Virus record (IMG/VR): IMGVR_UViG_3300032007_000084
Span: 1,565-65,564 of that record
DNA length: 64,000 nt
Origin: a virus
Lineage: Duplodnaviria > Caudoviricetes
Strand: one strand, 5' to 3'
Shown piece by piece: positions 1 through 10,123 of the stretch. The translations under genes and the position numbers were made by a program. Each line of letters begins with the position of its first letter. Positions within the stretch are counted from its first letter, which is position 1. The notes beneath the pieces are model-generated. The model was not told the origin of the DNA. It saw only the letters and a program-made list of their open reading frames with translations, and did no database searches.

Positions 1-453
1 TTACCAATACCTGGAATTGTAAATCGTATTGAGAGCATGTCTGACAAGACCTTTCATGCTTTCGATACAATATTTGTCGTTTTCTTTTTCGCCGTATGCA
101 TGATTCAACATATCAGCTAACACAAGTAAAGACGATTTTATCGCTTTTATGAATATATCGATACCTTTTGAATTTAGATTTTTCGATATGTATAGCAGAT
201 AGAGAATTGATGATGAAAGCGCTGATATATACCTTAGGTCATATACACTGCAATGGATTTTTATATAGTTACATACATATGTATAATGATTTCATATTGT
301 TTCCTTTTGTAAATTAATCGGTATAATTACATACAGTAAACTAAGATGAATCTCAAAGTTTTTCTGAGAGATTTACTCTTAGGGGGTTGCACGGAGCGAA
401 ATGTCGTAGCTTGTTCTGCAACGCTGCCTCAAGGATAGTGGTTTTAAAAACCC

Positions 454-570
454 CTCATCGCCGGGGCGAGCGCGAACAACACCGCGTCGAACGCGGGCGC
501 GTTCTACCTGAACCTGAACAACGCTCCCTCGAACGCGAACTGGAACATCGGCTGCGGCCTTTCCTATACC
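454..570 (+). ncRNA. DGR template repeat (TR-A)
   Basis: GC-rich island in AT-rich DNA upstream of an RT. One frame reads LIAGASANNTASNAGAFYLNLNNAPSNANWNIGCGLSY with 9 AAC codons. That frame is closed by TAA at 445-447, so it is non-coding. This is the classic TR for an FGE/Mtd-type C-type-lectin VR. Confidence 0.88.
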
Positions 571-650
571 TTCGGCACACTAAAGATTCGTAAAGTATTT
601 ATTATTTTTATAATAAGTATTTTATGAAACCTTTCTAATGCTCTGTGTAA

Positions 651-722
651 TCCTCACCCCTTGGTGAAAATTGCCGGGAACGAGACGGGACTAGTAAGAA
701 TCTTTGATTCTGAACGTCCCGT
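651..722 (+). ncRNA. DGR spacer RNA stem-loops between TR and RT
   Basis: Hairpin tcacc(654-658)/ggtga(663-667). Outer stem acgggac(685-691)/gtcccgt(716-722) encloses agaatc-ttt-gattct. Position matches the structured spacer of DGR RNAs. Confidence 0.6.
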
Positions 723-834
723 ACGGTATGCCTAAAGAACAGAATTTTGCTACTTTCAAAATAATTTTCTAATAGAAATAACAAATGATAGTCGAACAAT
801 ATTTTGTTTAAATAATGTGAGGGAGGAAATGCCC

Positions 835-2202
835 ATGAAAACTTATGATGGGTTATTCAAGTACATGCTAAGTCCAACCGTTGTTTGGAATTGCATGATG
901 GACGCTGCTGAGGGAAAATTAAATCGTCCCGAAGTGCAGAAAGCAATTAAGAATTTTGATCAAACATATGAACTCGTTGTAAAATGTGCAGCGGATCCAA
1001 ATTATCGACCTTGCGAAGATAATGTCCATGAGATTATTGATGGGTCGAATAATAAGCAACGTAAGATTGAGAAACCAAAATTCTGCCCGGAACAAATTCT
1101 TCATCATATGATCGTAGAACCATTTAAACCGATTTTGACACGTATGATTTACAGTGAGGTTTATGGTTGCCTACCCGAGAAGGTTGTCGATCTTTCAGAA
1201 GGTAAAAAATTATTAAGAAAATATGGTCCCCATGCGGCAGTAAAACGAATCGAAAAATGGGTGAGGAAAGATGGCGGAGATAAACTTTACATTTGTGAAG
1301 CAGATATTCATCATGCATATGCATCTGTAAATATTCCGGCATTAATGGCTGCGTTAGATCGAATTATTGACGATCCAGAATGGCTTCGCTTGGTTGGAGA
1401 ATTTTTGCATTATAATCCGGAAACGAAGGAATCGACGGATGAAGGTTTAGTATTAGGCCATTATACTTCTCCATGGTTCTTTAACTTTTATCTTTCGGTA
1501 TTAGATTATCGAATGGTATTACGAGAACCTCGTGAAGAGAAGAAGCGGAAGTCAAAGCGTACCACGTTTCATTATTTGCGTTATGCAGATAACATCTTCA
1601 TGATTTCGAGTAATAAAAAATATCTTCATGCAAAGTTGAAAGATATGAAAGAATATTTGCATGATACGCTCGGGATGGAACTAAACAGTTCCACCCAAAT
1701 TTACCGCTTTGAGCATCCAGATTTAGATGAAAATAAAAATGTGATTCATCTGAAGAATGGAAAACGGAAAATGGTTGGAAGAGCGGTAAATTTGCTTGGG
1801 TTTGTACTTCATTATGACCGTTTAGGTTCTCGTAAGAGTTGTTTGAAACGGATGCGTCGGAAAGCAAATAAGGTAAGACAAAAAGATAATCCAACGTGGC
1901 ATGATGCGTATTCCATGTGTTCTCGTATGGCAATGATTCGTTTTTGTGATGCGAAACAATATGCGAATAAGTATATCAAGCCAGGAATCAATTTTAAACA
2001 TCTAAAATCAAAAATACGGCAACATCAGAAAATGATGGGACCGGCGATGGAAGAAAGAAGGCGTGTTATTCATGACGGATTGGAAAACAGTGAATGGCTC
2101 ACAGATCGACCAACCGGAGGAATTCGATACGAGCAGCAGCAGTGTGGTTGTTTACCAACGGAGAAACATTCATCGTGTGACGGTGAAGAACTCCATGGGT
2201 GA
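835..2202 (+). CDS. DGR-type reverse transcriptase
   Basis: Motifs PEQILHHMI, ICEADIHHAYASV, GLVLGHYTSPWFFNFYL (DGR G-x-x-x-G-x-x-x-S-Q/P type), YLRYADN and LLGFV. GGAGG RBS at 822-826. TR-A lies upstream. Confidence 0.9.
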   Translation: MKTYDGLFKYMLSPTVVWNCMMDAAEGKLNRPEVQKAIKNFDQTYELVVKCAADPNYRPCEDNVHEIIDGSNNKQRKIEKPKFCPEQILHHMIVEPFKPILTRMIYSEVYGCLPEKVVDLSEGKKLLRKYGPHAAVKRIEKWVRKDGGDKLYICEADIHHAYASVNIPALMAALDRIIDDPEWLRLVGEFLHYNPETKESTDEGLVLGHYTSPWFFNFYLSVLDYRMVLREPREEKKRKSKRTTFHYLRYADNIFMISSNKKYLHAKLKDMKEYLHDTLGMELNSSTQIYRFEHPDLDENKNVIHLKNGKRKMVGRAVNLLGFVLHYDRLGSRKSCLKRMRRKANKVRQKDNPTWHDAYSMCSRMAMIRFCDAKQYANKYIKPGINFKHLKSKIRQHQKMMGPAMEERRRVIHDGLENSEWLTDRPTGGIRYEQQQCGCLPTEKHSSCDGEELHG

Positions 2203-2341
2203 TAGTGATGAGAATACCACGGAGCAGTGGGAGTACGAGGAACGTACGATGACTCCGTCGGAATATCTCAACTACATCGCAGAGAAGAATCGTTCCGATA
2301 TTGAATACCTGATGGTCATGGTAGAGTCGACTGCGGAGTAA
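2072..2341 (+). CDS. small phage tail-fibre-associated protein (overlaps RT 3' end in another frame)
   Basis: 89-aa ORF MTDWKTVNGSQ..QPEEFDTSSSSVVVYQRRNI...QWEYEER directly upstream of an XkdX-like gene, a common arrangement after Firmicutes phage fibre genes. Confidence 0.65.
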   Translation: MTDWKTVNGSQIDQPEEFDTSSSSVVVYQRRNIHRVTVKNSMGDSDENTTEQWEYEERTMTPSEYLNYIAEKNRSDIEYLMVMVESTAE

Positions 2342-2375
2342 TAGATTGACATTCCAAAAGGGGTGAAATTTTACC

Positions 2376-2525
2376 ATGGAGAATCATAGCACGAACTATT
2401 GGAAAGTAAAACGGTATTATGAGCGTGGTTTTTGGTCAAAGAAACGCGTTTATAATGTCGTTGGTCGTTGGATTACCAAAGAGGAATACAAAGAAATTAC
2501 GGGTGAAGAGTATACCAAGAACTAA
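2376..2525 (+). CDS. XkdX-family small protein (missed by ORF track)
   Basis: MENHSTNYWKVKRYYERGFWSKKRVYNVVGRWITKEEYKEITGEEYTKN matches the XkdX pattern (K.YY..G.W....V...V..WIT.EEY.EITGE.Y). GGGGTG RBS. Confidence 0.85.
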   Translation: MENHSTNYWKVKRYYERGFWSKKRVYNVVGRWITKEEYKEITGEEYTKN

Positions 2526-2540
2526 TTTACATCGAATCAG

Positions 2541-2584
2541 AAGATCTTATTGAGAATATGATATTTATTTCTCAATAAGATCTT
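2541..2584 (+). terminator. intrinsic terminator-like hairpin
   Basis: aagatcttattgagaa / ttctcaataagatctt inverted repeat followed by a pyrimidine run. Confidence 0.7.
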
Positions 2585-2693
2585 CTTCTCTTTCTCCATT
2601 CTATTATTCTCCCAATAAAGATAAACGTACGAAACAATTTTATAATGCATAGACCTTTATTAAAAATTTTTGATAGAAAGGAATGAAACATCA

Positions 2694-4013
2694 ATGAGTG
2701 ATCTGAAAGGTAAACTCAAAGTTAAATACAATGGCGGATATATTGTCATTCATCCGGAAACTACTGCGGATAAGGTCTTGAATCTTGATACTACGATTCT
2801 CGATACGATTCCCCAGAAGGTTCATGCTCTTTCTACGGAGTATTCCGTTGGTGACATTGTGTATTCGAAGGATCTTCCTTCCTGGGCATATTTGGAGTGC
2901 ACCACGGCTGGTACATCGTCTGATACGACTGTTGCAGAGATTAGTTCCTCTGCAACGGAGGGGCAATCCATTACGGATGGTACGGTTACATGGCTTGTGC
3001 ATAAGATTGGCAATGCGGATTCTGAACTGCTGAAGTCCATTTCTTCTACGGGGATTGCTGCAAATCAGATTCAGTATGGTACGGCAGAGAATAAAGTTGC
3101 AACGACGGCAATTAGCTCCGTTGGTCGAGATATTCTTGCAAAGACGTCTGCATCGGATGTTCTTACGTATCTCGGAGGTGCAACTGCTGCTTCTGTTTCG
3201 GCTATAAAACAGTTTGATCTGTCGTCCATTAGCCATACAGATCTCAACCATAATAGTTTCTATCGTGGAAAAGATCTGACGACGTATTTCACGTCTGGTG
3301 AGATGTCAAAGGCAATCGCTGCTGGTACGTTCATGGATATTTTCCCTGGGGATTATATTACAATGACCGTTACGGTGGATGACACGACGTATTCCAATGT
3401 GAAATGGATTGTTGGTGATATTGATTACCACTATAAGCGTGGTTGGCGTGATAATTCTTCGACCTATGGCGATTCTTCTGGTCAAACAACAGAGCATCAT
3501 GTGTTGATGTTCCCAGAAGGCGTACTTGGTTCGCACTATATGAATAGTTCGAATGTTACCACAGGTGCATATATTGGATCCGCTATGTGGAAGACATATA
3601 TTCCGAAGTACGCAACGGGTATCCAGAATGCATTTGGTACTTCGCATGTACTTGGGCATAATGAGATTCTTGCTAATTCGATGGGAGATAACCTTACATC
3701 GTCCGCTGGTGCTGGACAGGTTGGTAGCTCTAATGATTGGGCATGGTATCCAGTGCTTGCAAACCTCTTTAACGAGCCTATGGTATACGGTACCACTTCC
3801 TTCAGTTCGTCAGCATGTGATGTTGGTGATTGCAATACCCAGATCGCAGTGTTCCGCTTGAACAAGGCCATGAGTTTTGTTCGCGATAGTTGGTATTGGT
3901 TGCGCGCCGTGGCTTCCGCGTCGGATTTCTGCGGTGCCGACATCGACGGCTGTGCCGGCTCGAGCATCGCGTCGTTCGTCGGCGGTGTTCGCCCTTATTT
4001 CCTCCTCCGGTAA
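2694..4013 (+). CDS. tail fibre / receptor-binding protein with C-terminal DUF6273-like C-type-lectin domain (DGR target type)
   Basis: N-terminal HPETTAD motif, an EYSVGDIVY...TDGTVTW module and fibre repeats. C-terminus has HNSFYRGKDL, DIFPGDY, WIVGDIDY and YWLRAVAS..F..A...G.A....AS..GGVRPYFLLR. Confidence 0.8.
   Translation: MSDLKGKLKVKYNGGYIVIHPETTADKVLNLDTTILDTIPQKVHALSTEYSVGDIVYSKDLPSWAYLECTTAGTSSDTTVAEISSSATEGQSITDGTVTWLVHKIGNADSELLKSISSTGIAANQIQYGTAENKVATTAISSVGRDILAKTSASDVLTYLGGATAASVSAIKQFDLSSISHTDLNHNSFYRGKDLTTYFTSGEMSKAIAAGTFMDIFPGDYITMTVTVDDTTYSNVKWIVGDIDYHYKRGWRDNSSTYGDSSGQTTEHHVLMFPEGVLGSHYMNSSNVTTGAYIGSAMWKTYIPKYATGIQNAFGTSHVLGHNEILANSMGDNLTSSAGAGQVGSSNDWAWYPVLANLFNEPMVYGTTSFSSSACDVGDCNTQIAVFRLNKAMSFVRDSWYWLRAVASASDFCGADIDGCAGSSIASFVGGVRPYFLLR
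3885..4013 (+). other. DGR variable repeat (VR-B), orphan
   Basis: Abrupt GC-rich codon shift at the 3' end of the gene. NNC codons (tcc, gac, atc, gac, ggc, agc, atc, ttc, ggc) fall where a DUF6273-type TR carries AAC. A GC hairpin follows. Confidence 0.8.
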
Positions 4014-4023
4014 CACGATTCAC

Positions 4024-4042
4024 CCGCCGGCTTGTCCGGCGG
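4024..4042 (+). promoter_or_regulatory. DGR target-recognition hairpin
   Basis: ccgccgg-cttgt-ccggcgg: 7-bp all-GC stem 10 nt after the VR gene stop, as found downstream of DGR IMH sites. Confidence 0.75.
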
Positions 4043-4499
4043 CCATTGGCCATTGCTGAGCGGTCATATAACTTAGGAAATAAGAAAAATAAAATAAATT
4101 AAAATAAGATATTAAGTAGTTTGTCGTATTATTATACGGGTAATGAAGTATTTATAGTTGTATACAGCTAATTCCGGCGAAAGCGTTCACACGCTTTCGC
4201 CGGAAAAATATTATATATAGGGAAATTGATGAAAACAACTCGGAATAATGTTAAAGGCGCCGCGATTTATCGCGGCGCCTTTAACCGCAAAATCAAAATT
4301 GTGTAATTAATTATAAACCATATAACACATTAATAGATCTAAACTAAAAATCGTAAAAGGAATAGTTTTGCAGGAATGCCAGTTTTTAACATTTTTTTGA
4401 TAGTTTTTCCTGTATAAGACATAAATAATACTTCATCCTTACGAAAATTCAGTTCTTGGATCAAATAACGAATCAACTAAATTTAAAAAGTCTAAAATA

Positions 4500-5051
4500 T
4501 TTCGGTTTTCCAGTCTGATTTATTTGAAAATTTTTTGAATTTAGAACTTCCTAGGATGTATGATAGATCGAAGAATGGTTTAGAATTATCTTAGGTAGAA
4601 AAGTCTTATGATTGTATTTGAAGATGCTGAGAATTACTGACCATCTTCGCAGTATTTTTAGATATGATTTTAAGACTTTGCTGAGATTCATACATTCAAA
4701 GCTCACATGTCGATGAACGATGAGTGTATGAATCTTAGTTTCCCAAAAAATGAATTTAAAATTCATTATATCATATACAAACAATTGGATGAAAAATCTT
4801 GGATTATATTTTTATGATCCAATTTATATATACTTAGGTTGAGAAAGATTTTTCCAACCGATAAGAGTTTTTTATTAGCGTATTTAAAATGAAAGGATGT
4901 TGTTCTTCGAGAACGAAAGAAACTGAAGAAATTAGCATTTAAGGTGATTAGTAAAGAAATGACCTTTGATGCTTATGTGGAGCAGTACGGTTATCATAAC
5001 ACATTTAAATATAACCGTTATGTACAAAATAGTAACGAAATCCAAAATTAA
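4500..5051 (+). pseudogene. decayed second DGR reverse transcriptase (RT-B remnant)
   Basis: 4893-5051 reads KDVVLRERKKLKKLAFKVISKEMTFDAYVEQYGYHNTF, resembling the RERRKLKK...GEMT...Y C-terminus of DGR RTs. Upstream fragments in shifting frames (SVFQSDLFENFL..MYD; RITDHLRSIFR-YDFK; KNLGL) follow RT motif order, with stops and deletions. Confidence 0.5.
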
Positions 5052-5083: not shown

Positions 5084-5326
5084 ATGGATGATGAGAAACA
5101 AAAGAAAATCGATGATCTGAATCGTCAGATCATCGAACTTCGTTCGAATCTTGCGGCTGATACATCGAACATTGGTGACTATAAGATCGTGAAGACGTAT
5201 GAGGCTCGCCTTCTTGGAAAAGATGATCCGTATGATACGAATCAGCTCATTGAGGAGCGGAATGCTACGCGCTCGAAGATCAATGAACTTCAGGAAGAGC
5301 TTGCTGCACTGGAAGCCGCAAACTGA
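5084..5326 (+). CDS. small coiled-coil tail-fibre chaperone-like protein
   Basis: IGDYKIVKTYEARLLGKDDPYD...R..TRSKINELQ pattern, recalled from genes that follow phage fibre/DGR RT genes. AAGGAAG RBS. Confidence 0.65.
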   Translation: MDDEKQKKIDDLNRQIIELRSNLAADTSNIGDYKIVKTYEARLLGKDDPYDTNQLIEERNATRSKINELQEELAALEAAN

Positions 5327-9574: not shown

Positions 9575-10123
9575 ATGTCGAAATTCAATGAAGTATGGAG
9601 CGCGCTCAAGAGTGAGAACAAAGAGGCTGTCAAGGATAAGAAGTCGAAGAATGTTCCGTATTCGAAACATAAAGAGGCAATGCTCACGCAGGCTCTGCTG
9701 AACACGCCGGATTATGAGATGAATACGCTAAAGACGAAGAAAGGCGAATTCGTCAACGTTACTTCGAACCCAGTCGAAGAGTTCCGTCAGCTTATGGTTG
9801 GCAAGGTTCTTCGTGACAATGGCATTGACAAGCAGCAGGCAGAATCCGCTGCTCGTAACTATGAGTTCTCGATGCAGCAGGCACAGGCGTTCAACACGCT
9901 TTCCCGTGAGAACACGGAGCAGTTCCTGCGTGCAGGCTTTACGTATGACTTTGGTCATAAGAATGATTTCAATGGCCAGATTCGTATGCAGCATGTCCCG
10001 GCACGCGATGTTACTGCAAAGGTTCCTGGCACGGGTGAGATTACCAAGACACATGAAGATGAACATTACGTCATCGTGAAGAAGTCTGGCACGCCTCGTT
10101 GCTGCAAGACGAAACTTCAGTAA
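9575..10123 (+). CDS. hypothetical protein, likely highly expressed
   Basis: AGGAGG RBS and strongly biased codons (cgt, aag, acg, ttc). Confidence 0.8.
   Translation: MSKFNEVWSALKSENKEAVKDKKSKNVPYSKHKEAMLTQALLNTPDYEMNTLKTKKGEFVNVTSNPVEEFRQLMVGKVLRDNGIDKQQAESAARNYEFSMQQAQAFNTLSRENTEQFLRAGFTYDFGHKNDFNGQIRMQHVPARDVTAKVPGTGEITKTHEDEHYVIVKKSGTPRCCKTKLQ

Follow-up and report, generated by a model that had tools for sequence, protein, structure and literature searches.

The window analysed here is a stretch of 64,000 nucleotides from a virus of the class Caudoviricetes (Duplodnaviria), corresponding to contig positions 1565-65564 of IMG/VR record IMGVR_UViG_3300032007_000084, a contig of 65.5 kb in total. 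CheckV places the completeness of the record at ~26 % of a jumbo phage genome, so that ~74 % is unsampled. The left end of the window carries the template repeat (TR-A) and the reverse transcriptase (RT-A) of a diversity-generating retroelement (DGR), designated cassette A, followed by a tail-fibre-like gene, fibre-B, which ends in a variable repeat (VR-B) and a GC hairpin, and then by a deletion junction and the remnant of a second reverse transcriptase, RT-B (Table 1). The lineage very probably carried two unrelated DGRs in tandem, of which DGR-A is active and DGR-B has lost its template and enzyme by deletion, leaving VR-B most likely frozen. The contig as a whole has a GC content of 38 %, and only three islands on it exceed 58 % GC.

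Table 1 Features of the DGR region; positions are those of the window unless marked as contig positions
Feature	Position	Strand	Remarks
VR-A	contig 1086-1200 (window -478 to -364; 364-479 nt before window start)		3' end of Mtd_N-type tail protein
TR-A, template repeat of DGR-A	454..570	+	ungapped match to VR-A
RT-A, reverse transcriptase of DGR-A	835..2202	+	455 aa from ATG; open reading frame (ORF) open from GTG 817
Fibre-B, tail-fibre-like protein	2694..4013 (ORF from 2670)	+	439 aa (447 aa from 2670); identical to P0001; PHROG tail-fibre matches
VR-B, orphaned variable repeat	3901..4004	+	stretch homologous to TR-B of relatives
GC hairpin downstream of VR-B	4024..4042	+	7-bp stem, 5-nt loop; -9.8 kcal/mol, z -2.0
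Junction of ~2.2-kb deletion	4867..4897	+	6-nt AAAGGA microhomology at 4892-4897
RT-B remnant	4893..5051	+	52 C-terminal codons (4893-5048) and stop
Conserved 80-aa gene after RT-B in relatives	5084..5326	+	phrog_17180; synteny in L020, L028, L049, L051
XkdX-like small phage gene	2376..2525	+	between RT-A and fibre gene; Pfam Phage_XkdX E 2e-15
GC island	contig 1051-1290		just upstream of window
GC island	401-580		contains TR-A
GC island	3861-4060		fibre-gene end (VR-B) and hairpin

Cassette A is intact and has the order target-A(VR-A), TR-A, RT-A. Target-A is a tail protein with an Mtd_N domain, which is 775 aa long on longer contigs and 5'-truncated on the contig of the window. TR-A aligns with VR-A without gaps over ~116 nt, and all 10 mismatches in the genome under study (G000) lie at TR adenines. 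A search of the whole contig on both strands matched TR-A to itself and to the VR-A site and to nothing else. The initial annotation, made from the window alone, had noted that no ORF there carries a TR-A-like VR and had placed the target elsewhere; both statements hold, because the window boundary cuts VR-A off and the target lies upstream on the same contig. VR-A ends 11 nt ahead of the target-A stop codon and is followed by a hairpin with a 10-bp GC stem. RT-A matches Pfam RVT_1 (E 3.5e-10) and phrog_1423 (E 1.3e-55), and adenine-biased TR/VR pairs adjoin eight of nine RT-A homologues in IMG/VR (46-78 % identity), in the order VR-TR-RT. Cassette A combines an adenine-biased TR/VR pair, an adjacent DGR-type reverse transcriptase, a 3' VR with a GC hairpin and ongoing diversification. 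The character that it lacks is Avd or another accessory gene, there being no phrog_3206 match on the contig and no candidate among the small ORFs nearby. Avd is not, strictly taken, a defining part of a DGR, since 26 % of the DGRs catalogued do without it (PMC5758913).

DGR-A is active, because three near-identical genomes carry three different VR-A. The ENA contig represented by L011/L024 and the contig L012 show 1 single-nucleotide polymorphism outside the VRs relative to G000 over 6-15 kb, and VR-A differs from that of G000 at 19 positions in L011 and at 15 in L012, nearly all of them at TR-A adenines (one non-A exception in L012). VR-B is identical in all three genomes (0 differences). Several contigs begin or end in or at VR-A (the end of L025; the starts of L002, L007 and L009), which is typical assembly behaviour at hypervariable repeats.

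TR-A and VR-B had been judged from the window to be no cognate pair, and direct and adenine-tolerant alignment ruled the pairing out: the best local alignment scored 24 and was gapped, and the best adenine-tolerant ungapped register gave 19 non-A mismatches against 14 matches. The fibre gene does end in the VR peptide that had been read from it, with the GC hairpin intact behind the gene. Six close homologues of fibre-B (85-95 % identical) differ almost solely in a block of C-terminal codons, with the DNA changes in codon positions 1-2 between invariant flanks. Among ~25 related fibres, grouped in five 90 % clusters, VR-B is distinct in each and its variation is limited to TR adenine codons. 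On this sequence evidence VR-B is a genuine DGR variable repeat. The sequence of its hairpin is the same as in relatives with an intact DGR-B, and the hairpin is a DGR target-recognition type of element that has been retained intact.

A complete cassette B was found in four close relatives, L027 (Logan SRR32996012), L028 (Logan SRR33322331), L049 (a 186-kb ENA scaffold) and L050 (Logan, 49.9 kb), the flanks of which are ~96-98 % identical to the window. Each holds two complete TR/VR pairs, TR-A/VR-A and TR-B/VR-B, and cassette B has the order fibre-B(VR-B), Avd-B, TR-B, RT-B. TR-B lies ~1.8 kb downstream of VR-B in these genomes, with 12-19 adenine mismatches between the two. The VR-B of the window differs from the TR-B of L027 at 19 TR adenines and at one other site, and that single non-A site is an adenine in the TR-B of L028 and L050. 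The TR peptide that the initial annotation had predicted by back-mutating VR-B departs from the real TR-B peptide, taken from L050, in about 3 of 31 residues. Avd-B is a gene of 226/243 aa between VR-B and TR-B which matches the PHROG "Avd protein of DGR" (phrog_3206, E 1.5e-6). RT-B follows TR-B and has 430 aa, a YMDD and an LGxxxSQ motif, and matches to RVT_1 (5e-18) and phrog_1423 (2.5e-57). RT-B relatives in IMG/VR show a VR of the form ...VRPxF... before the stop, a gap of ~0.7 kb (the size of Avd), a TR and an RT in 18 of 19 cases, and RT-A relatives have a different VR type and no gap of that size. RT-A and RT-B share no significant BLASTP similarity.

The genome of the window lacks most of this cassette. 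By blastn, window positions 2600-4866 correspond to L028 86-2345 and positions 4892-4987 to L028 4541-4636, and collinearity with both L028 and L049 (~96-98 % identity) extends to 4866 and resumes at 4892. The break relative to L049 falls between 10172 and 12395, matching the break relative to L028, so that L049 10173-12394, a segment of ~2.2 kb containing Avd-B and TR-B as well as RT-B up to about codon 330, is missing. The microhomology at the junction lies just upstream of the Avd-B start. The RT-B remnant has undergone a further in-frame internal deletion of 138 nt at about 4983-4987; its nucleotide identity to the RT-B 3' end is 100 % (L028) or 97.9 % (L049), and its translation corresponds to RT-B residues ~333-364 and 411-430, without the catalytic motifs. 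The conserved 80-aa gene behind it marks where the former DGR-B cassette ended downstream. Within the window cassette B thus retains an adenine-specific VR, its TR is known from relatives only, and it has no TR, RT or Avd of its own. An adenine-tolerant scan of the 65.5-kb contig for TR-B found VR-B itself only, and neither that contig nor the 15 kb upstream of it (L011, L024) yielded a TR-B, a second RT or an Avd. Scans for exact 23-mers and 28-mers in IMG/VR and the JGI metagenomes, which may omit records very near this genome, also yielded no TR-B; they gave two more copies of VR-B (L002, L023) and a chance match in a contig of 66 % GC (L022).

At least 8 samples, with 10 contigs between them, contain the exact fibre-B protein (P0001). 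VR-B is most likely frozen, because its sequence does not vary among the three near-identical genomes or across these samples. It is presumably no longer mutable in vivo, and fibre-B presumably still serves as a functional fibre. Six contigs (L013-L018, 1.46-1.59 kb) bear the fibre-B gene alone, and assemblies therefore break on both sides of the gene.

The following course of events would account for the locus. A jumbo-phage lineage would have carried two unrelated tandem DGR cassettes, each diversifying its own tail protein. In cassette A, TR-A RNA would be reverse-transcribed with errors at adenines and the resulting cDNA would overwrite VR-A. From cassette B, ~2.2 kb was deleted at the 6-nt microhomology, which took Avd-B and TR-B and, of RT-B, the catalytic part; another 138 nt was lost from the RT-B tail. 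VR-B would still carry whatever sequence was written into it last, along with its 3' boundary and hairpin, because its template and enzyme have been deleted, and would amount to a frozen receptor-binding specificity. The TR-A/VR-A pairing, the deletion, the adenine-site relation between VR-B and the TR-B of relatives, and the contrast of a varying VR-A with an unvarying VR-B among near-identical genomes are demonstrated. The loss of cassette B is ordinary gene decay.

Several points weigh against this account. Two assemblies, G000 and the ENA contig from which L011 comes, show the deletion junction, and they may not derive from independent samples; the frozen state of VR-B rests on three near-identical genomes and identical proteins in several samples; and the record covers ~26 % of the genome, so that a TR-B elsewhere is conceivable, though unlikely.

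VR-B might be renewed occasionally from outside, either in trans by the Avd-B, TR-B RNA and RT-B of a co-infecting relative or by homologous recombination swapping the fibre-B cassette. Recombination or trans action is physically plausible, because the flanks of those relatives that keep DGR-B intact match at ~96-98 % identity, and the intact hairpin and the six ~1.5-kb contigs on which assemblies break on both sides of the fibre-B gene also fit such renewal. However, all deletion-bearing genomes share one VR-B, deletion and intact genotypes did not co-occur in the samples examined, and trans action between co-infecting phages is not known for the family concerned, so that outside renewal is improbable. 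The same low standing is given to the related idea that the orphan VR-B, with its 3' boundary and hairpin intact, can still act as an acceptor, rewritten in trans by a DGR-B-positive co-infecting relative or through an undetected TR-B in the jumbo genome. If that idea were true, a phage losing the cassette would have reversibly "parked" one of its tail-fibre specificities and not have reached a dead end.

Less probable still is continued diversification of VR-B from a remote TR-B in the unsampled part of the genome, copied by RT-A or another RT. A remote TR-B is conceivable in view of the ~26 % completeness; the 3' boundary sequence and hairpin of VR-B are kept, and other DGRs are known to have remote VRs, such as the second target of Quimbyvirus (PMC8008677). 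On the other hand, the segment deleted is precisely the one that holds the syntenic TR-B site in the four relatives, VR-B has 0 changes against 15-19 in VR-A, and the pattern scans of IMG/VR and JGI contigs contained no TR-B. There is no sign of RT-A serving VR-B, because RT-A and RT-B are dissimilar and the two clades pair with different VR types, that of RT-A always with its own. The reading that the GC-rich fibre end is a segment acquired by recombination and holds no DGR repeat, its mismatch to TR-A being meaningless, could appeal to the absence of a TR on the contig and of a Pfam DUF6273 call on the window protein, but is refuted by the cognate TR-B of relatives, with its adenine-only mismatches, and by the restriction of variation among ~25 relatives to TR adenine codons, and is given practically no weight.

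The preferred reading thus remains that of two tandem DGRs of which the second has been disabled. The initial annotation had proposed that the phage has or had two DGRs, and it is the "had, now frozen" form of this proposal that agrees with the four complete cassettes of relatives. Among the fates it had offered for VR-B, the frozen state is favoured by the contrast between 0 changes in VR-B and 15-19 in VR-A, and a remote TR or the use of RT-A in trans found no support.

The closest known counterpart of the ancestral cassette B is the DGR of Bordetella phage BPP-1 (mtd-avd-TR-brt), which has the same order and parts. As in BPP-1, the VR in cassette B of the relatives lies at the C-terminus of its target, within a C-type-lectin-like domain, and is followed by a GC hairpin, an Avd-like gene, a TR and an RT; the substitutions are adenine-specific, and the arrangement is the canonical BPP-1 type. 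Unlike BPP-1, the target is a DUF6273-related fibre and not Mtd, the carrier is a jumbo phage of low GC content, and in the window genome Avd-B, TR-B and most of RT-B have been deleted. In the large-scale DGR survey of Wu et al. 2018, avd was present in 74 % of DGRs and several DGRs occurred in ~10 % of DGR-bearing complete genomes (PMC5758913). Cassette A resembles the Avd-less DGRs of that survey in being without a recognisable Avd and yet active, and the two-DGR lineage falls within the ~10 % multi-DGR class. It differs from the surveyed DGRs in that the cassettes are adjacent, their RTs are without significant similarity, the targets are two different tail proteins, and the RT-A clade has R[YF]ADN instead of YxDD. 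Quimbyvirus, a gut-type phage, has two hypervariable C-type-lectin targets, and the activity of its DGR was likewise deduced by comparing near-identical genomes (Benler et al. 2021, PMC8008677). The number of targets and the basis on which activity is judged are alike in the two cases; in Quimbyvirus a single TR and a single RT serve both VRs, whereas here each VR has, now or formerly, its own TR and RT, and the TRs are unrelated.

Two adjacent cassettes with dissimilar RTs acting on two jumbo-phage tail proteins, together with a sister genotype that lacks one of them, are a tidy example and not a new kind of system, and no new mechanism is revealed. The lineage does offer a clean natural comparison, since sister genomes have kept the second cassette or lost it by different routes. 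The rate at which a VR drifts once its template has gone can be measured in metagenomes, as can the ability of one DGR to serve the target of another; the present observations suggest that one DGR cannot serve the other's target. For annotation, the locus warns against taking the VR closest to a TR as its partner, and shows that a VR can be orphaned and still have an intact hairpin.

Cassette B is found in further states elsewhere in the lineage. In the more distant relative L020 (fibre 85 % identical), Avd-B and TR-B have been lost by a different event, and L020:5403-7054 holds an unrelated spacer of ~0.9 kb and then an RT-B of 245 aa which lacks the N-terminal part and keeps YMDD. In L051:643-3518 the C-terminus of one fibre-B copy (P0137) is precisely the TR-B peptide, without mutation (…NFCNANNNGNANTNIASNVNGVRPYFL, then stop), and RT-B follows directly, with no Avd-B and no VR hairpin; this arrangement reflects either homologous recombination between VR and TR or the collapse of a short-read assembly. 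Judged from these states, cassette B seems to have been lost repeatedly in the lineage.

The catalytic motif C of RT-A is YADN (window 1579-1590). All 10 sequences of the RT-A clade that were compared (RT-A and the RT genes of L002-L010) have R[YF]ADN, YxDD being usual in RTs, and the clade has LGHYTSPWFF in place of the LGxxxSQ of DGR RTs. Despite these atypical motifs the clade adjoins adenine-biased TR/VR pairs, and VR-A is visibly changing. A literature search on YADN in reverse transcriptase returned nothing relevant, and a phmmer search of RT-A against PDB sequences gave no match.

The two DGR targets share an N-terminal module, because ~390 nt at the 5' end of fibre-B (window 2632-3020) are 74-75 % identical at the nucleotide level to the 5' region of target-A (L019:4239-4630; L049:2254-2645). 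This module probably serves attachment. The C-terminal ~255 aa of fibre-B, which bear VR-B, are 53 % identical over 255 aa to P0020, the aligned C-terminus of which scores 24.7 against Pfam DUF6273 (PF19789; cut-off 23.5); fibre-B of the window itself has no DUF6273 match at E ≤ 1. The domain (window 3237-4010) was modelled with AlphaFold at a predicted local distance difference test score (pLDDT) of 92.1, and most of the 50 matches listed by VIA-align are C-type lectin(-like) or FGE-like domains. Examples are TvpA (2y3c; Z 5.1, 137 aligned, root mean square deviation (rmsd) 4.7) and Mtd (1yu0; Z 4.1, 103 aligned, rmsd 3.5); a single Z below 8 is weak, and the case for a C-type-lectin (CLec) fold depends on the consistency among matches. 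The domain thus models as C-type-lectin-like and DUF6273-related, with the predicted CLec fold expected of DGR variable proteins. The initial annotation had spoken of different lectin folds for the two specificities, which is better worded as different subfamilies. The top structural match is with the Thomasclavelia ramosa IgA peptidase (9qa6) in its N-terminal region, residues 32-283; with Z 13.1 and an rmsd of 2.9 over 174 aligned residues it stands well clear of the generic C-type lectin matches.

A weak fourth GC island (window ~9830-9950) is ordinary coding sequence. The contig showed no terminal overlap in a test for circular closure, L024, which reaches 10 kb farther upstream, showed no overlap with the contig end, and a look-up of two genes at the contig 3' end for extension gave no further records. 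The fibre region had no blastn match among GenBank phages.

Two further observations concern the fibre-B C-terminus. The D-S codons at window 3885-3890, ~10 nt upstream of the start of TR-B homology, are hypervariable among relatives (D/N/T/S followed by S/G/A/I/R/M/N/T, in NNT-like codons) and lie outside the TR-B of L027, L028, L049 and L050; a longer ancestral TR and selection are both possible causes. In L020 and L023 the tyrosine of the WYW motif is replaced by cysteine (TGC/TGT).

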